From NCBI GenBank assembly GCA_964617475.1, contig CAZTYM010000004.1, positions 2,132-66,131 on the forward strand: a DNA stretch of 64,000 bases. The letters are read 5' to 3'. This stretch comes from an uncultured Thiotrichales bacterium (lineage in GTDB: Bacteria; Pseudomonadota; Gammaproteobacteria; GCA-2400775). Both the position numbers and the translations under genes were made by a program. Shown in pieces: positions 2,366-11,699 of this stretch (position 1 is the first letter of the stretch; each line of letters starts with the position of its first letter). The notes under the pieces were generated by a model. That model saw only the letters and a list, made by a program, of their open reading frames with translations. It made no database searches and was not told where the DNA came from.

Positions 2366-3256
2366 GTGGCGCAAGACTTTGTTCGTCGTTTTATGTTTGA
2401 AAAGCTAGCGGTGCGCGGCGAGATAGTGCGTTTAGAGCATAGCTATCAGTCAGTTCTTGAACGTCATCCTTATCCACCTGTTTTGGCTGCCTTATTGGGT
2501 ACTGCTATGGCAGCAGTAAGTTTGTTGGGAACCACAATTAAGTATCAGGGTAAGCTGATATTGCAAATACAAGGCAAGGGGCCCGCCAATTTATTGGTTG
2601 TAGAATATGATAGCGAAGGTCATATTCGTGGTCTTGTAGATTGGCAACAGCAGCAGCTTTTAGATTCAGACATTCGATCTTTATTTAGCCAAGGTCATAT
2701 GGCAATTACCGTTGTTCCTACTGGATCAGATAGCGCGCAAGATAAAGCCAACCGTTATCAAGGGATAGTAGAACTGGATGATGCAAGTTTGGCAGGATGT
2801 TTAGAGCATTACTTTAGACAGTCTGAACAATTGGCGACGAGTTTGTATTTGGTTGCAGACGAAAATAAAGTTGCCGGTTTTATGCTTCAGCAAATGCCAT
2901 CTTCACCTTTAAACGATGATGATTGGCAAAGACTTAAGTTGCTTACCGAAACCTTAAGTGATGAAGAATTGTTCAATCTAGACGTTGAGCAGCTATTGCA
3001 TCGTTTGTATGGTGAGGATGATATTCGTCTATTTGAAAGCGAGCCAGTTAATTTTCAGTGTACATGTTCGATTGAACGAATTGAAAATATGTTGCGAAGC
3101 CTGGGTAAAGCAGAAGTCGAAGATGTCTTACAAGAACAAGGTAAAATAGAAGTGGCTTGCGAATACTGTAACAAAAAATATCAGCTAGATGCGGTTGATG
3201 TCGCGCAATTGTTTACTGAGGTGGAGAGTGGGTATCACTCCACAACTCGTCATTGA
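2366..3256 (+). CDS. hslO: Hsp33 redox-regulated chaperone
   Basis: VRGEIV, YQGIV and YFRQSEQL motifs. C-terminal CTCS...CEYC zinc switch. Confidence 0.95.
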   Translation: MAQDFVRRFMFEKLAVRGEIVRLEHSYQSVLERHPYPPVLAALLGTAMAAVSLLGTTIKYQGKLILQIQGKGPANLLVVEYDSEGHIRGLVDWQQQQLLDSDIRSLFSQGHMAITVVPTGSDSAQDKANRYQGIVELDDASLAGCLEHYFRQSEQLATSLYLVADENKVAGFMLQQMPSSPLNDDDWQRLKLLTETLSDEELFNLDVEQLLHRLYGEDDIRLFESEPVNFQCTCSIERIENMLRSLGKAEVEDVLQEQGKIEVACEYCNKKYQLDAVDVAQLFTEVESGYHSTTRH

Positions 3257-3305
3257 TATAGTGGATCTATCAGGCTGATTGTTTCAGCCTATGCAACATG
3301 GCTGT

Positions 3306-3371
3306 ATTAGTTTTCTTAATCCACTAAATAAGTAATTACAATTTCTGTAATCAGGTCTAAACCTCAATAAT
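3306..3371 (+). promoter_or_regulatory. OxyR/LysR-type 37-bp box plus -10 hexamer upstream of secreted repeat protein 1
   Basis: ATTA-N7-TAAT-N7-ATAA-N7-CAAT (3306-3342), then AATAAT (3366-3371). Same geometry as the boxes at 4841-4877 and 5370-5406. Confidence 0.6.
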
Positions 3372-3422
3372 AGATAGCAACAAACATTTACTTATCTCGC
3401 AGAAATATGCCGAGGAGTTGCT

Positions 3423-3818
3423 ATGAAAAACTTGAAGTTAACCGCCACAGCAGCTGCGCTAGTCTCAGCTTTAATATTATCACTTGGTATCGCTCACGCA
3501 GATAACCTAGGTCGTTTAAATGGCTATGCAAAAGTACCAGGTAGTAATAAAACTGCCTTGCCAGTCTCTAATGCGATAGTGGTTGATAAAAGTAGCAAAA
3601 GCACCAGTCATGGTCGTTTAAGCGGTTATGCTGAAAATTCATATGATGCCGCGAGCCAGCTAGAAACGATTCCCGTATTAGCAGGTATGCATGACATAAA
3701 GCCGGTTAAAGAGAGCATTGGTTATGGTCGTTTAGACGCTTACAGCGATCATCAATCAGATGAAAGCGCTACTTATTTTCAAATCTTAGATTCGACCAAT
3801 ACGGCAGTTTGGTACTAA
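3423..3818 (+). CDS. Small secreted protein with three GRLx[GA]Y motifs (paralog 1), function unknown
   Basis: GAGGAG SD, Sec signal ending IAHA, motifs GRLNGY, GRLSGY and GRLDAY. Confidence 0.85.
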   Translation: MKNLKLTATAAALVSALILSLGIAHADNLGRLNGYAKVPGSNKTALPVSNAIVVDKSSKSTSHGRLSGYAENSYDAASQLETIPVLAGMHDIKPVKESIGYGRLDAYSDHQSDESATYFQILDSTNTAVWY

Positions 3819-4351
3819 TAATTTTTACCTAGGTAGTCATTTTTCAGCTCAATATAATGTTGGGCTGAAAACTCCAAGTAGTCTAGTTCCACTTGTTTTA
3901 ACGGCCGTGCTTGTTTTGCTGGCGCACCTACATAAAGAAAACCACTTTCCAAAACTTTACCTGGTGACACTACACTGCCTGCTGCAACCATACAGCGTGA
4001 ATGAATAATGGCACCGTCTAAAACGGTCGCGTTCATTCCAATTAAACAAAACTCTTCTATCGTACAAGCATGTAAAACCGCGCTATGACCTATGGTGACA
4101 TTTTCGCCTATTAACAGTGGTTTACCGCCAGGGACAAATTGGCTATCGCAAGTAACATGTAGCACCGCACCATCTTGAACATTGGTTCCAGCACCAATAG
4201 TTATTGAATTAACATCTCCGCGAGCTACCGCCATTGGCCAAAACGAAACATCTGCACCTATGTTGACATCACCAATTATGCAGGCTGCTTCATCAATATA
4301 AGCAGTATTATCAATGCGAGGTAAAGAAGTTTTATAAGGGCGTATATTCAT
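3815..4351 (-). CDS. yrdA: Gamma-class carbonic anhydrase family protein (YrdA-like)
   Basis: Hexapeptide repeats. RGDVN, NVQDG.VLH and TIGH..VLHAC metal-binding histidines. Confidence 0.9.
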   Translation of the reverse strand: MNIRPYKTSLPRIDNTAYIDEAACIIGDVNIGADVSFWPMAVARGDVNSITIGAGTNVQDGAVLHVTCDSQFVPGGKPLLIGENVTIGHSAVLHACTIEEFCLIGMNATVLDGAIIHSRCMVAAGSVVSPGKVLESGFLYVGAPAKQARPLKQVELDYLEFSAQHYIELKNDYLGKNY

Positions 4352-4372
4352 TAATTAATTATATCAGGCAAT

Positions 4373-4404
4373 AAAAAAGGTGGCAGTGTTAACACTACCA
4401 CCTT
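4373..4404 (-). terminator. Rho-independent terminator of repeat protein 2
   Basis: Hairpin AAGGTGGCAGTGTT/AACACTACCACCTT next to A6 on the plus strand (a U-tract on the minus strand), 20 bp after the stop. Confidence 0.8.
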
Positions 4405-4424
4405 GGTTTGGTTTAGTAAGACAA

Positions 4425-4778
4425 TTAACGAGTTGCGATAGTAGTTTCGTTATCGACTACTTCAGGCGTACCGTAACCGCCTAAACGGCCATATTGACCA
4501 ATATTCGCATAAACACCGCTGCTTACATTATGCTCTTTGTTAATTTCGTTTCCGTAAGCAGCAATGCGACCAAACTGACCAGCATCGGCATACTGTCCTT
4601 TAGCAGCAGCTTCTACTGACCGGTTAAAGGGAACTGTATAGCCATGTAGTCGGCCGTTGTTGCTGCTAGCAACAGGAACAGTGGCACTATCGTTAGAATT
4701 ACCAAAGTCATGTGCTTGCACAAAAGCAGAAGAACTAGCACCAATCAATGCAGCAATTAAAGCAATATTTTTCATCAT
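4425..4778 (-). CDS. Small secreted protein with three GR[LI]x[GA]Y motifs (paralog 2), function unknown
   Basis: GGAG SD, signal peptide MKNIALIAALIGASSSAFVQA, motifs GRLHGY, GRIAAY and GRLGGY spaced 28 and 27 aa. Confidence 0.88.
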   Translation of the reverse strand: MMKNIALIAALIGASSSAFVQAHDFGNSNDSATVPVASSNNGRLHGYTVPFNRSVEAAAKGQYADAGQFGRIAAYGNEINKEHNVSSGVYANIGQYGRLGGYGTPEVVDNETTIATR

Positions 4779-4840
4779 ATATCTCCAATAATTAAAATCA
4801 TTACGTTATTAATTATTGGGCTGATCAATGAAAAACAGAA

Positions 4841-4877
4841 ATTGATTATATTTAATAGTGTATTAGTGAAAGGCTAT
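4841..4877 (-). promoter_or_regulatory. OxyR/LysR-type 37-bp box upstream of repeat protein 2
   Basis: Minus strand reads ATAG-cctttca-CTAA-tacacta-TTAA-atataat-CAAT. AATAAT follows 23 bp later. Confidence 0.65.
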
Positions 4878-4924
4878 TGATGGTTTGATTGTTGTAGAAA
4901 TAATAATTTAAAAAAGACGGATAT

Positions 4925-4958
4925 AAAAAAAGCAGTGAAGCATATGCTCCACTGCTTT
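4925..4958 (-). terminator. Rho-independent terminator of repeat protein 3
   Basis: Hairpin AAAGCAGTGaAGCAT/ATGCTcCACTGCTTT with a plus-strand A-run (U-tract on minus), just after the stop at 4975. Confidence 0.8.
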
Positions 4959-4974
4959 ATGGGTTGCCGTTCAA

Positions 4975-5298
4975 TTAACGAGCAGCAACTTTAGTGTCAT
5001 CAGCAGCATCAGTGATAAGTGAGGGGCTATTGCCGTAACCACTTAAACGACCGAACTCACCTACGTTAGCGTATATGCCTTTGCTAACTTCGAACTCTTC
5101 GTTGATAGCATTACCGTAACCGCTAAGGCGACCAAATTGAGCAACATCTGCGAGCTGACCTTTGTTTTCAACAACGTCTGCTTGTTGAAATGGCACGGTG
5201 TAACCATGAAGACGACCATGGCTATCAATGCTTTCAGCTTGAACAAAAGCGGAAGAGCTAGCGCCAATCAATGCCGCAATTAAAGCAATATTTTTCAT
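4975..5298 (-). CDS. Small secreted protein with three GRLxGY motifs (paralog 3), function unknown
   Basis: AGGAG SD, signal peptide identical to paralog 2, motifs GRLHGY, GRLSGY and GRLSGY spaced 28 and 27 aa. Confidence 0.88.
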   Translation of the reverse strand: MKNIALIAALIGASSSAFVQAESIDSHGRLHGYTVPFQQADVVENKGQLADVAQFGRLSGYGNAINEEFEVSKGIYANVGEFGRLSGYGNSPSLITDAADDTKVAAR

Positions 5299-5369
5299 AA
5301 CATATCTCCTAAAAACTAAATTAAAAACTTTACGGTTTTGATTATGGAGACGATGTCTTGATTAGTAAA

Positions 5370-5406
5370 ATTGATTATTTTTAATATCGCTTTAGTTTGT
5401 TTCTAT
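5370..5406 (-). promoter_or_regulatory. OxyR/LysR-type 37-bp box upstream of repeat protein 3
   Basis: Minus strand reads ATAG-aaacaaa-CTAA-agcgata-TTAA-aaataat-CAAT. CATAAT follows 23 bp later. Confidence 0.65.
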
Positions 5407-5461
5407 AGGGCTCTAATTAAAGTTATCTATTGTATTAATAGTCAATCTCAATGGGCTTTTG

Positions 5462-6808
5462 TTAGCGTAACGTCACGACTTCTTCTGCTGTTGTGGGATG
5501 TATCGCTACCGTATTATCGAAGTCTGCTTTTGTCGCTCCCATTTTAATGGCTACAGCAAAGCCCTGTAATAATTCATCCGAACCTTCGCCTATTGCGTGC
5601 AGGCCGACGACTTTTTCTTCATCACCTACAACTACTAATTTAATTGTGCATTTGGGTTTGTGTTCGGTAATACCATTACGTAATGGGGTAAATGTAGAAG
5701 TATAGGTTTTTACATCATCAACAAATTGTTCACGTGCTTGTGCTTCGGTTAAGCCCACGGTACCAATAGGCGGATGACTGAAGATAACAGTGGGTACAGT
5801 GTTGTAATCCAATTTGGCTCCGCTTTGACTGTTAAACAAACGATCAGCAAGTCTGCGGCCAGCAGCAATAGCAACAGGTGTTAAGGCGATACGCCCGGTC
5901 ACGTCACCGACGGCATAAATATTATCGGCATCTGCATTTTGATATTCGTCTGTTTCAATAAAGCCGCGCTGGTTTGTGCTAAGCCCAGCTTTTTCTAATG
6001 CTAGCTTATCAGTAGCCGGACTGCGGCCAATTGCCCAAATTACCTGGTCTAAACTACCCAGCGTTCTGCCATCTTCTAAATATAGGTTTAATCCTTGATC
6101 AGATTGTTCTAATTTTTTCGGTGTCGCCTGAGTGACCAATTCTATACCTTGATCGTCTATCGCTTTTACTAAAGCTTCACCAATGGTGTGATCAAAATTA
6201 CGAAGAGGCGCATTACGGCGCACGAGTAGTTGTACTTTGCTGCCGAGGCCTTGCAGTACGCCAGCAAGTTCAACAGCGATATAACCTGCGCCAACCACGG
6301 CAACATTTTTTGGTTGAGTTTTCAGTTCAAAAAAACCGTCGGACGTAATACCTAGCTCGGCACCTTCAATATTCGGTACGGTAGGGTAGCCGCCGGTAGC
6401 AATTAAAATATGTTCGGCTTGATAGTGATGATCGCCGACAACAACGGTATGTGCGTCTACAAACCGGGCCATGCCTTGTATAATTTCAACCTTATTATTG
6501 CCGAGGTTGGTTTCGTAAATGCCATTAAGTCTGTGTATATAGGCCTCGCGGTGTGCAACGAGTTTTGCCCAGTCAAAATCAACGGTTTGGTGAGAAAAAC
6601 CGTAATCGCCAATATCATGAAAACTCTCTGCATAATTGGCTGCATACCACATGATTTTTTTTGGCACGCAGCCGCGATTAACGCAGGTGCCACCGAGGCG
6701 ATTGTTTTCAATAACTGCCACTTTTGCACCGTAAGATGCAGCACGATTCGCCGATGCTATGCCACCGCTACCACCGCCGATTACCAAATAGTCATATTGA
6801 TTACTCAA
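5462..6808 (-). CDS. gor: Glutathione-disulfide reductase
   Basis: GGGSGG FAD motif, [13 protein letters not shown] redox disulfide, GAGYIAVE, C-terminal IHPT..EE. Confidence 0.97.
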
Positions 6809-6829
6809 AGTTTTTCCCTATCTAAATAA

Positions 6830-6854
6830 TTGAAAAGTATGATTTTAGCCATAT
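6830..6854 (+). promoter_or_regulatory. Possible sigma32 promoter for prlC
   Basis: TTGAAA...agCCATAT upstream of prlC. prlC is sigma32-controlled in E. coli. The match is imperfect. Confidence 0.3.
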
Positions 6855-6904
6855 GCTACGATAAGTTATTATCAAGTTTATGACATTATCCGGTATCAGT
6901 CGCT

Positions 6905-8944
6905 ATGAATAACCCTTTACTTACAGAGCAACACCTGCCCCGTTTTGCGGACATTAAGCCAGAACATATTGAGCCCGCTATAGATCAGCTTCTGGCCGAG
7001 CAAAGACAGCAGATCGACGACTTGTTAAATCGTAAGCAGTCGCCAAGTTTTGACAACTTTGTGCTGGTGATGGACGCCATGTCAGAACGATTAAGCCGTA
7101 TTTGGTCACCAGTTAGCCACATTAATTCCGTGCTCAATAGTAAGGAAATGCGCGAGGCTTATAATAATTGTCTGCCCAAGATCAGCAAGTTTTCCACCGA
7201 GCTAGGTCAGAATGAGAAGCTGTATCAGGCTTATAAAACTGTTGCTGAGAGCGACGAATATCAGCAGCTTGATACTGCAGCGCGCAAGATGGTGGATAAT
7301 GCTTTGCGTGATTTCCGTTTATCTGGTGTTGCCTTAGAGGCAGATAAAAAAGAACGTTACAAAGAAATCAAAGCGGAATTATCACGCTTAGCATCCAAGT
7401 TTGAAGAAAATGTCCTCGACGCTACCGGAGCGTGGAAAAAAGGCATTACCAATGAAAACGAGCTGCGTGGCTTACCGGACAGCGCTAAAAGCTTAGCCAA
7501 ACAAGCTGGTGAGCAGGCGGGTATGGAAGGTTGGCAATTGAGCTTAGAAATGCCGTCTTATTTTGCCGTCATGACGTATGCTGATGACAGAGCTTTACGC
7601 CGCGAAGTCTACGAAGCCTATACCACGCGTGCTTCTGAGCTCGGGCCACATGCGCGTCATTGGGATAATAAAAGTAATATGAATCAGCTGCTGGCTTTGC
7701 GTCATGAACAAGCTCAGATACTGGGTTTTGACAATTATGCTGAATATTCTCTTGCTACTAAAATGGCTGAAACGCCGGAAGAAGTGGTTGGCTTCTTAAA
7801 AGACCTCGCACAACGTTCTAAATCAGTGGCGGAAACCGAATTCGCTGAGTTAGCCGAATTCGCCAAAGAGCGTGATAATATCCATGACCTATCCGCTTGG
7901 GATGTCATGTACTACAGCGAGAAACTACGCCAAGCGCGTTATGATATTTCACAAGAAGAACTTAAACCGTATTTCCCAGTGCCTAAAGTGCTATCAGGGA
8001 TGTTCGCCGTGGTTGAGCGTTTATATGGTTTGCGTATCGAAGAAAAAGCTGGTGTTGCTATCTGGCATGATGATGTGCGCTTTTTTGAAATACGTGATGA
8101 GCAAGACGACGTCCGCGGTGAGTTTTATCTCGATCTTTATGCGCGAGCACATAAACGTGGTGGTGCCTGGATGGATGAGTGTGTCACACGCCAGCGTCAT
8201 AATGAGGGCGTTGATACGCCGGTAGCTTACCTAACCTGTAATTTTACTCCCCCTATTGGCAGTGATCCTTCGTTGTTAACGCATACAGAAGTAATTACTT
8301 TGTTCCACGAATTTGGCCATGGTTTGCATCATATGCTGACAAAAGTAGAGTATTCCGGTGTGGCGGGTATTCGCGGTGTTGCTTGGGATGCAGTCGAACT
8401 ACCTAGTCAATTTATGGAAAACTGGTGTTGGCAGCGCGAAGCCTTGGATTTAATTTCCGGTCATTATCAAACTGGCGAATCAATACCGGATGAGTTGTAT
8501 AACAAACTCAATGCCAGCAAGAATTTTCTATCTGGTATGCATATGGTCAGACAATTAGAGTTCGCTTTATTTGATTTTCGTATTCATAGCGAATATTCAC
8601 CTGATGCAGGCCTAGATATTGAAAAGGTGTTATCAGAAGTGCGAGCCGAAGTCGCTGTTGTACCGACACCTTCGTTTAACCGCTTTGCGAATGGTTTTTC
8701 ACATATTTTTGCAGGGGGTTATTCAGCCGGTTATTACAGCTATAAATGGGCTGAAGTTTTATCGAGTGATGCTTTTTCTAAATTCGAAGAGAACGGCATC
8801 TTCGATCGTGTTACCGGCAAACAGTTTTTAACTTCTGTTTTAGAGCAAGGCGGATCACGCGAACCTATGGAATTGTTTGTAGAATTCCGGGGCCGTAAGC
8901 CTAGCATCGACGCCTTGTTACGTCATAGCGGGTTGGCAGCTTAA
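6905..8944 (+). CDS. prlC: Oligopeptidase A (M3 family)
   Basis: MNNPLL start, KRGGAWM, HEFGHGLHH zinc motif, VELPSQFMENW and GYYSYKWAEVL. Confidence 0.97.
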   Translation: MNNPLLTEQHLPRFADIKPEHIEPAIDQLLAEQRQQIDDLLNRKQSPSFDNFVLVMDAMSERLSRIWSPVSHINSVLNSKEMREAYNNCLPKISKFSTELGQNEKLYQAYKTVAESDEYQQLDTAARKMVDNALRDFRLSGVALEADKKERYKEIKAELSRLASKFEENVLDATGAWKKGITNENELRGLPDSAKSLAKQAGEQAGMEGWQLSLEMPSYFAVMTYADDRALRREVYEAYTTRASELGPHARHWDNKSNMNQLLALRHEQAQILGFDNYAEYSLATKMAETPEEVVGFLKDLAQRSKSVAETEFAELAEFAKERDNIHDLSAWDVMYYSEKLRQARYDISQEELKPYFPVPKVLSGMFAVVERLYGLRIEEKAGVAIWHDDVRFFEIRDEQDDVRGEFYLDLYARAHKRGGAWMDECVTRQRHNEGVDTPVAYLTCNFTPPIGSDPSLLTHTEVITLFHEFGHGLHHMLTKVEYSGVAGIRGVAWDAVELPSQFMENWCWQREALDLISGHYQTGESIPDELYNKLNASKNFLSGMHMVRQLEFALFDFRIHSEYSPDAGLDIEKVLSEVRAEVAVVPTPSFNRFANGFSHIFAGGYSAGYYSYKWAEVLSSDAFSKFEENGIFDRVTGKQFLTSVLEQGGSREPMELFVEFRGRKPSIDALLRHSGLAA

Positions 8945-9711
8945 TGAAGATAGTCAGTTGGAATGTTAACTCGCTACGTGTCAGATTACCGCATGTCTTG
9001 GATTGGTTGGCTTCAGCCGAGCCTGATGTCTTGGCCTTACAAGAAACCAAAATGACTGACGAAGAGTTTCCTGCTGAAGCGATTCGAGAGGTAGGTTACA
9101 ACGTCGTTTTCTCTGGTCAGAAAACGTATAACGGCGTCGCCATTATCAGCAAAGCAGAAGCCAGCGATTTCGTTACCGATGTACCTGACTTAGATGATCC
9201 ACAACGCCGGATATTAGCAGCAACGATTGATGGCGTACGTATCATTGATTTATATGTGCCAAATGGCCAAAGTGTCGAATCAGAAAAATACCCTTATAAA
9301 CTTGATTGGCTAGGCAAAGTTACTGCTTATGTTGAAGAGCAGCTCTCTAAATATAAGGAACTGGTAGTGCTAGGCGATTTTAATATCGCGCCAGAAGATA
9401 GAGATTGCTATGACCCCGAGGGTTGGGGTGAAGAAGTATTATGTTCCAAACCGGAACGCGCGGCATATCAAAAATTGATAGATTTGGGTTTGGTCGATAC
9501 CTTTCGTTTGTTTGAGCAAGAAGACCGTTCATTCAGTTGGTGGGATTATCGACAAATGGCGTTTAGACGCAAACGTGGCTTGCGTATCGATTTAGTCCTG
9601 GCTAGCACTGCCTTGGCAGATAAATGTATCGAAGGTTCCATAGACATAGGACCGCGGAAATTAGAACGTCCGTCCGATCATGCACCAGCCATAGCCGTGT
9701 TTGACCGCTAA
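8944..9711 (+). CDS. xthA: Exodeoxyribonuclease III
   Basis: SWNVNS, LQETK, YNGVA, GDFNIAP, WWDYR, LRID and SDHAP motifs. Confidence 0.96.
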   Translation: MKIVSWNVNSLRVRLPHVLDWLASAEPDVLALQETKMTDEEFPAEAIREVGYNVVFSGQKTYNGVAIISKAEASDFVTDVPDLDDPQRRILAATIDGVRIIDLYVPNGQSVESEKYPYKLDWLGKVTAYVEEQLSKYKELVVLGDFNIAPEDRDCYDPEGWGEEVLCSKPERAAYQKLIDLGLVDTFRLFEQEDRSFSWWDYRQMAFRRKRGLRIDLVLASTALADKCIEGSIDIGPRKLERPSDHAPAIAVFDR

Positions 9712-11177: not shown

Positions 11178-11699
11178 ATGAATAAAATTTCAATTTGTTA
11201 TTATCGCACCAAGATTGGTGAGCTGTTATTAGGAGAATATCAAAATAAAATTTGTCTTTTGGATTTTCGCCATCGCAAAATGCGCTCTACTGTAGATAAG
11301 CGAATCCAGCAAGGTCTGCAAGCTGAATATACTGTTGAAGAAACTCCACTTCTACAAGGTTTAAAATCCGAAATAAATGCTTATTTGGCTGCTGAAATAA
11401 GGAAATTTTCATTACCAATATTTACTGTTGGCACAGAATTTCAAAAGCGTGTTTGGCAAGTACTTCTACAAATACCCTATGGAAAAGTCATCACCTATGC
11501 TGATTTGGCGGAAAAAGTTGAAAACCAAACTGCTGTCAGGGCGGTCGCCACAGCCAACGGTGCAAATGCCATGAGTTTAATCATACCTTGTCATCGCGTC
11601 ATTGGTAGTGATGGTGAATTACGTGGCTATGCGGGTGGCTTAAAGGTCAAGCAGCGATTATTAAATTTGGAGAGCCGTCAAGCAGTATTAGATATATAG
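11178..11699 (+). CDS. ogt: Methylated-DNA--protein-cysteine methyltransferase
   Basis: GTEFQ..VW, IPYG..ITY, PCHRV active site and GYAGG. Confidence 0.93.
   Translation: MNKISICYYRTKIGELLLGEYQNKICLLDFRHRKMRSTVDKRIQQGLQAEYTVEETPLLQGLKSEINAYLAAEIRKFSLPIFTVGTEFQKRVWQVLLQIPYGKVITYADLAEKVENQTAVRAVATANGANAMSLIIPCHRVIGSDGELRGYAGGLKVKQRLLNLESRQAVLDI

Follow-up and report, generated by a model that had tools for sequence, protein, structure and literature searches.

A 37-bp OxyR-like box at a fixed distance from the predicted -10 of secreted repeat-protein genes in an uncultured bacterial genus

The window analyzed here, a 64,000-nucleotide (nt) stretch of DNA from an uncultured Thiotrichales bacterium (C4:2132-66131 of genome G000, which comprises 2.36 Mb in 71 contigs with 44% G+C), contains three genes for secreted repeat proteins, P1, P2 and P3, each preceded by a 37-bp box of four tetramers separated by seven nucleotides. 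Which regulator recognizes this box, and what would such regulation mean for the proteins? The initial annotation proposed that the three genes form a mini-regulon activated through the box by a LysR-type transcriptional regulator (LTTR), for which OxyR was the best guess. Comparison of nine genomes of one uncultured genus, including G000 itself, points to a likely answer: the box is probably an operator for this genome's own OxyR, a peroxide sensor encoded on another contig (C16) and acting in trans.

The box and its conservation across the genus

The quality of a box was expressed as the number of matches, of 16, to the consensus published for OxyR, ATAG-N7-CTAT-N7-ATAG-N7-CTAT. Reading of the sequence places the three boxes, the TT that trails each of them and the predicted -10 hexamers 23 nt further on exactly where the initial annotation had located them (Table 1). 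Among 185,263 fully intergenic 37-mers of G000, 36 (1.9e-4) reach at least 12/16 and 620 (3.3e-3) reach at least 10/16. As scores of at least 12/16 are rare and the position of each box is fixed by its -10, the P2 and P3 boxes clearly exceed chance, whereas the proximal box of P1, taken alone, is only marginal against this background and required comparative evidence. At the 17-bp spacing, P1 and P2 have TTCTGT in the -35 position (2/6, weak) and P3 has TTTACT (4/6, moderate), so that the reported lack of a good TTGACA applies to the first two promoters but not to P3, which a simple sigma-70 scan lists at 9/12.

Relatives of the three genes were followed through the genus as A-type (P2 and P3), B-type (P1) and D-type, a further class introduced below. 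A box ending exactly 23 nt before the -10 was observed in 10 of 12 A-type promoters, in all four of the B-type and in all 13 D-type promoters for which upstream sequence is available, that is, in 27 of 29 promoters from the nine genomes; the distance is 23 nt in every one of the 27. The A-type consensus (10/12) reads ATAG.ttt.c.CTAAt......gTA.aaAtAtTCAATTTct, followed after 23 nt by (CCC)AATAAT; its tetramers, ATAG-N7-CTAA-N7-gTAg-aaatatt-CAAT, give the consensus ATAG/CTAA/GTAG/CAAT, which scores 13/16. The B-type consensus (4/4) is ATtA.t.TTCTTAATg..cT..ATaaGTAAttACaATTT, followed after 23 nt by nATAAT. The T-N11-A symmetry of LysR-type sites is present in both dyads of either class (aTag-N7-ctAa and gTag-N7-caAt in A-type; aTta-N7-taAt and aTaa-N7-caAt in B-type). 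Between classes, the spacers differ completely. When the classes are weighted equally, conservation amounts to 1.22 bits at tetramer positions, 0.51 bits in the spacers and 0.28 bits in the upstream flank. In particular, a comb of four tetramers with an 11-nt period has its maximum at offset 0, which is the register given by the initial annotation (1.22 bits, compared with 0.45-0.55 bits out of phase), and is high again one 11-nt period away.

Two smaller features of these promoters lie outside the box. The motif C(C/T)GTA is conserved 4-5 nt past the -10, near the expected start, in A-type (e.g., 4807-4803 and 5336-5332) and ahpC promoters and is absent from B- and D-type promoters. A sigma-32 reading of CCCAATAAT was rejected by eye, as no CTTGAA-like -35 is conserved and the CCC is missing in the B- and D-types.

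The comb bears directly on the possibility that the block is not an LTTR site at all but ordinary promoter architecture, with an UP element next to a weak -35, or else the target of some unrelated factor (of Fur/PerR type or a nucleoid protein), kept by common ancestry. The region is AT-rich, the third A-type spacer AAATATT is conserved together with TCAATTT in the manner of a proximal UP subsite plus -35, likeness among homologous paralogs can be inherited, and the D-type spacers are conserved as well. Nevertheless, conservation follows a pattern of four positions on and seven off and returns to background level out of phase, the first two spacers vary freely within A-type, and the non-homologous promoters of ahpC, rbr, an extracytoplasmic function (ECF) sigma gene and prlC, described below, share both the comb and the 23-nt spacing. 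This alternative is judged unlikely. Fur and PerR sites are contiguous 15-19-bp repeats, and a site of this type was rejected because the conservation is comb-like rather than contiguous.

The D-type class was found with a matrix built only from 14 A- and B-type promoters (16 tetramer positions, TT and -10). A scan of the whole genome with this matrix detected an unlinked and unannotated fourth paralog on contig C38, whose box, ATAA-N7-CTAA-N7-ATAA-N7-CAAT (12/16), is followed by TT and, 23 nt past the box, by GATACT. The class occurs in eight of the nine genomes, with one to three tandem copies in each, and in G002 its box reaches 14/16 with a perfect first dyad, ATAG-N7-CTAT. The total for G000 is four GRLxGY-repeat genes, namely P1, P2 and P3 in the window and the gene on C38. 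The proposed mini-regulon of three genes is thus too small, as the set extends to the C38 paralog and similar boxes precede prlC-xth and the ECF sigma gene. The ahpC (L026, L027, L029) and D-type promoters also share ATAGATTTTAT, shifted by 1 nt between the two sets, right in front of the -10; this sequence lies outside the 37-bp box and outside the 11-nt register.

Unrelated promoters with the same layout and the candidate regulator

The initial annotation had suggested looking for the box at classical peroxide genes, and at ahpC it was found. In G000, the ahpC promoter carries ATAG-N7-CTAT-N7-ATTA-N7-CGAT (13/16), followed by TT and, 23 nt after the box, by TAATAT; the box scores 13/16 in G008, where TAATAT stands at the same distance, and 11/16 in G001. 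The box-23 nt-(-10) layout is present in all three genomes with upstream sequence, and the G004 contig breaks off within the box. The rubrerythrin gene (rbr), located directly downstream of oxyR, has ATTG/ATTA/TTAG-N7-CAAT/TAAT/CTAT-N7-ATAA-N7-TAAT, then 23 nt and TATTTT, in four of five genomes, with a 1-nt indel inside the box of the fifth; the tetramers come very close to those of the B-type box. Genome-wide, the consensus is matched best (15/16) in front of the ECF sigma gene (C6:50614-50650; L005 2115-2151), where the box, 23 nt and TAATTT occur in two of two genomes and are kept in G002 with different spacers. The prlC-xth box, in the gor-prlC intergenic region and oriented towards prlC, is conserved with the same spacing in four of four genomes; the left half of the box coincides with the gor ribosome-binding site and TTG start, and this start region may account for part of the conservation. 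Together, ahpC, rbr, the ECF sigma gene and prlC-xth are four independent, non-homologous promoters with a shared architecture. A 12/16 site (C9:2588-2624) also lies in the interval that separates a cytochrome c peroxidase gene from the divergent gene for an Rrf2-family regulator, and no good -10 was found 23 nt away from it.

The ECF box is part of a longer palindrome, TTCCATAG...CTATGGAA, and is flanked by a YceI-like gene on one side and the ECF sigma/anti-sigma pair on the other. As TAATTT ends only 5 nt before the sigma ATG, the ECF sigma transcript may be leaderless.

The relationship between the repeat-protein and peroxide promoters was also examined genome-wide and in both directions. 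With the consensus alone, at least 13/16 is reached within 300 nt upstream of nine of 2198 genes, including ahpC, P1 and P3, and P2 is among a further 55 genes at 12/16. With the A- and B-type matrix, the ahpC site is 19th of 4,711,844 positions; by gene, ahpC ranks 7th and rbr 17th of 2198. Conversely, a matrix of three ahpC and four rbr promoters, used at tetramer positions only for the repeat-protein genes, places P3 2nd, P1 11th, the C38 gene 12th and P2 18th of 2198, and the P3 rank arises from a 13/16 site at 5416-5452. The cytochrome c peroxidase gene is 6th with the ahpC and rbr matrix, and the prlC-xth box is 3rd when the -10 is included. The gene set was produced by a crude caller of longest open reading frames; exact ranks are thus approximate, which lessens their weight in favor of OxyR.

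As for the regulator, G000 has four LTTRs (PF03466 matches), located on contigs C32, C15, C16 and C22 and none on C4; the statements that no LysR gene lies in the window and that the regulator acts in trans agree with this distribution. They comprise a CbbR-like protein, CysB, a YafC-like protein and, on C16, an OxyR-like protein whose best NCBIfam match is OxyR (246 bits). The C16 protein aligns over its full length with Pseudomonas aeruginosa OxyR (4x6g; E 1.4e-105), has an almost identical helix-turn-helix and retains both redox cysteines (the C-x8-C pair) in the motif GNCFRDQVLAAC. The candidate is present in six of the nine genomes, including all three that are at least 90% complete; the three genomes in which it is missed are 75-89% complete.

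One of the three non-OxyR LTTRs could be the binding protein instead, in which case the box would be bound by CysB, a CbbR-like or a YafC-like protein and the signal would be sulfur, carbon or something else, but not peroxide. T-N11-A dyads near -65 and -35 are common to all LTTRs, and the B-type box departs from ATAG/CTAT (10/16). However, the box occurs with its spacing at ahpC and at rbr beside oxyR, at the ECF sigma gene and near the cytochrome c peroxidase gene, and the arrangement of two ATAG/CTAT-type dyads 22 bp apart is described as the OxyR signature in two studies (PMC5002191, PMC5720770). Moreover, no sulfur- or carbon-fixation gene is prominent among the top-ranked genes, most of which are unannotated. 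Binding by another LTTR is considered very improbable.

The box consists of four degenerate ATAG-like tetramers that recur every 11 bp and make up two dyads of the ATAG-N7-CTAT type, spaced 22 bp apart; it ends 23 nt before the predicted -10, where it would abut the weak -35. With a predicted start approximately 7 nt past the -10, the dyad centers would lie near -65 and -43, the geometry of OxyR-activated promoters. If OxyR is the regulator, an oxidized OxyR tetramer on the box would recruit RNA polymerase to promoters without a good -35, and peroxide would switch on the GRLxGY-repeat genes together with ahpC and rubrerythrin.

This predicted arrangement closely resembles known OxyR operators. 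According to PMC5002191, Escherichia coli oxyS has two ATAG-N7-CTAT dyads centered at -66 and -44, at a site that abuts the -35, as is predicted here. Among the confirmed P. aeruginosa OxyR sites listed in Table 2 of PMC5720770, scores of 12-13/16 are found, and TAAT and CAAT tetramers are included, e.g., at ahpC. Four ATAG-like tetramers in successive major grooves are also typical of the operators known from E. coli (at oxyS, katG and ahpC) and from P. aeruginosa (at katB, ahpB, ahpC and phnW), the 12-14/16 sites reported here fall in the range of confirmed sites, and the regulator is encoded elsewhere. The differences concern the local consensus, AT(A/T)(G/A)-N7-CTA(A/T)-N7-(A/G)TA(A/G)-N7-C(A/G)AT, and the predicted targets, which belong to an orphan family of secreted repeat proteins. 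Generic LysR-type promoters with a regulatory binding site and an activation binding site (T-N11-A near -65 and -35) are similar in having T-N11-A in each dyad, a weak -35 and, as in the A-type, an upstream dyad that is better conserved than the promoter-proximal one. They differ from the present promoters, in which the two dyads are contiguous, have a 22-bp center distance and consist of OxyR-type tetramers, and in which the regulator is not divergently encoded beside its targets.

Several observations weigh against assignment of the box to OxyR. The -10 hexamers, start sites and direction of regulation are predictions, and LTTR boxes are generically alike in their T-N11-A symmetry; a CysB-associated divergent region also scores 12/16, and other LTTRs are excluded only indirectly. 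The C16 candidate falls below the NCBIfam equivalog cut-off (246 versus 329 bits). katG, a classical OxyR target named as a check in the initial annotation, has only 9-11/16 matches and no convincing box, and is thus uninformative as a positive control; upstream of oxyR, likewise, no convincing box was found (9-13/16 at positions that are not conserved; 9-10/16 in G000). The proximal box of P1 scores 10/16, or 9-11/16 over the four B-type genomes, a level that some intergenic 37-mers reach, and a far better match, with an uncertain connection to the promoter, lies further upstream of P1 (see below). In G007, the box is absent from or displaced by 11 nt in two A-type promoters (L025 5408-5827 and 4950-5297). 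Both of these copies have a different upstream region, common to the two (AATCTTCAGAGTGTATTCAGACAC); one keeps CTAA-N7-GTAA-N7-TCAT at 34 nt (23+11) from CATAAT, and no recognizable box was found in the other. Finally, the A-, B- and D-type proteins are homologous (hhalign probabilities of 93% and 96.6%, the latter for P1 B-type versus A-type), and part of the similarity is inherited. The 27 promoters are thus not independent observations, and, as the three classes are distant homologs, the operator probably descended together with the gene and was retained afterwards; the weight lies instead in the pattern of conservation. OxyR nevertheless stands as the best candidate, as proposed initially, on the strength of the comb register, the spacing constant in 27/27 promoters, the common layout at ahpC and rubrerythrin and the OxyR ortholog on C16.

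Additional OxyR-like sites and the surrounding locus

Directly past the hslO stop codon and upstream of the proximal P1 box lies a distal site (3256-3292) that is the second-best match in the genome. It raises the question of whether OxyR, even if it binds, activates from the proximal box everywhere: at P1, the distal site could serve as primary operator, with the proximal box either belonging to another promoter or acting as a weak auxiliary site, or OxyR could repress some of the promoters, as it is known to do elsewhere (PMC5002191). The distal site of P1 scores 14/16 against 10/16 for the proximal box, and such a site is present in all four B-type promoters, with scores of 14 (G000), 12 (G008), 13 (G001) and 10 (G007) of 16 and at distances from the proximal box of 50 (G000), 51 (G008), 61 (G001) and 61 (G007) nt. 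These distances differ by an 11-nt step, approximately one helical turn, which suggests helical phasing, and AT-rich hexamers occur 22-23 nt past the distal boxes. However, the proximal box of P1, its TT and the 23-nt interval form the layout also seen in 23 A- and D-type promoters that lack a conserved distal site, and in G000 and G001 the distal site overlaps an inverted repeat that is possibly just the end of the hslO transcript; in G000 it holds the 7-bp inverted repeat AGGCTGA-ttgtt-TCAGCCT. This alternative, with another activating site or with repression, appears quite unlikely, and activation by OxyR from the proximal box remains the favored prediction. The distal site itself may be an additional operator, the main operator of P1 or in part a coincidence.

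The 13/16 match upstream of the P3 box, between that box and the gor stop codon, is not conserved in the other genomes: G006, G003 and G008 have no room for it or no match, and the gap between gor and the box in other genomes is only about 20-40 nt.

Table 1. Positions of promoter elements and genes (window coordinates unless a contig is named; the P2 and P3 boxes, -35 and -10 elements and the P2 hairpin run from high to low)
Feature	Position	Strand	Sequence or product	Matches of 16
P1 proximal box	3306-3342	+	ATTA-N7-TAAT-N7-ATAA-N7-CAAT, then TT	10
P1 predicted -10	3366-3371	+	AATAAT, 23 nt past box
P2 box	4877-4841	-	ATAG-N7-CTAA-N7-TTAA-N7-CAAT, then TT	12
P2 predicted -10	4817-4812	-	AATAAT (CCC before hexamer), 23 nt past box
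P3 box	5406-5370	-	ATAG-N7-CTAA-N7-TTAA-N7-CAAT, then TT	12
P3 possible -35	5369-5364	-	TTTACT
P3 predicted -10	5346-5341	-	CATAAT, 23 nt past box
P1 distal site	3256-3292	+	ATAT-N7-CTAT-N7-ATTG-N7-CTAT	14
Match upstream of P3 box	5416-5452	-	second OxyR-like match	13
prlC-xth box	6807-6843	+	AAAG-N7-CTAT-N7-ATTG-N7-TGAT; 23 nt; TATTAT (6867-6872)	12
hslO	first gene of 2366-9711	+	Hsp33
P1 (B-type)	3423-3818	+	131-aa secreted GRLxGY-repeat protein
Hexapeptide-repeat gene	3815-4351	-	hexapeptide-repeat protein
P2 (A-type)	4425-4778	-	116/117-aa secreted GRLxGY-repeat protein
P2 hairpin	4404-4377	-	terminator-like
P3 (A-type)	4975-5298	-	107-aa secreted GRLxGY-repeat protein
Hairpin after P3	4929-4958	-	terminator-like
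gor	5462-6808	-	glutathione reductase
prlC	6905-8944	+
xth	8944-9711	+	exonuclease III
D-type gene on C38	C38:11426-11671 (gene and promoter 11310-11671; L030 1811-2175)		82 aa, signal peptide, GNFGGY/EGRLNVY/EGRLSGY repeats

The genes between 2366 and 9711 follow the order hslO, P1, a gene for a hexapeptide-repeat protein, P2, P3, gor, prlC and xth (Table 1). A terminator-like hairpin between P3 and the P2 box suggests that P2 and P3 are separate transcription units with their own promoters, and xth, which begins at the prlC stop codon, is probably co-transcribed with prlC. The flanking of P1-P3 by hslO, gor and prlC-xth was counted in favor of OxyR. Synteny of the locus is kept throughout the genus: gor is followed by one to three A-type copies, and a single B-type copy lies next to hslO. 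In G008 (L023), hslO is missing between ABC-transporter genes and P1, and the distal OxyR-like site is still kept; in G005 (L024, 77% complete), neither hslO nor P1 was found, and the hexapeptide gene is apparently truncated. The sequencing runs that contain positions 3200-5500 of the window are four DNA runs from one biofilm-metagenome sample, with no RNA run among them; the assembly may derive from this sample.

The repeat proteins and the meaning of their regulation

Each of the small proteins P1-P3 carries a signal peptide and has three or four repeats resembling G-R-L-x-G-Y, and none of them matches a Pfam or NCBIfam family. Relatives of P3 are present in six of the eight other genomes of the genus and in none of the 52 genomes that represent other families of the class, and the family was found only in the genus of the window. 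Among 5.8 billion clusters, there are only 28 relatives, all annotated as 'hypothetical'; HMMER searches over 1.84 billion representatives gave six real representative clusters and no relatives outside the family. One further HMMER match, to the 704-aa perfect sushi-like repeat protein P0029, resulted from summed repeats and was rejected. In the ESM Atlas, only unnamed 'hypothetical' or 'lipoprotein' clusters with scores of at most 0.90 were found, none of them usable. An AlphaFold2 model of the A-type alignment was likewise unusable (mean predicted local distance difference test score, pLDDT, 43; predicted template modeling score, pTM, 0.12). The proteins are probably short, exported and disordered, with conserved Gly-Arg-Leu-x-Gly/Ala-Tyr repeats. 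Searches of the OxyR literature on binding sites, on dityrosine and secretion and on comparative genomics of the regulon yielded no paper on either the proteins or the uncultured, sulfur-oxidizer-like genus.

Resilin-like Gly/Tyr repeat proteins form dityrosine. The GRLxGY proteins resemble them, as an analogy for the gene products only, in having short Gly- and Tyr-containing repeats in a secreted, predicted-disordered protein; they share no demonstrated sequence homology with them, and any functional parallel is speculation. The GRLxGY proteins might act as sacrificial oxidant sinks or form a tyrosine-cross-linked protective biofilm layer, a speculative idea whose only grounds are the way in which the genes are predicted to be regulated, the export signal, the composition of the proteins and the fact that the DNA comes from a biofilm. 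It is a tentative and rather doubtful proposal that they constitute a new class of OxyR-induced extracytoplasmic peroxide-defence proteins with several exported paralogs, which would be the largest part of the OxyR regulon, and that hslO-P1-P2-P3-gor-prlC-xth would form an 'oxidative-stress island'.

The operator type itself is textbook biology; the new part is the orphan set of predicted target genes. The repeat-protein genes are among the best-scoring predicted OxyR targets in the genus and, with at least four copies per genome, make up the largest group of them. Should the assignment to OxyR be correct, the OxyR operator would have drifted from ATAG/CTAT as far as ATTA/TAAT/ATAA/CAAT, with its distance to the -10 held rigidly at 23 nt, and such drift with fixed spacing would be useful for regulon reconstruction in uncultured bacteria. 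It would also provide a first functional handle on the orphan family, whose members would be peroxide-induced and exported.

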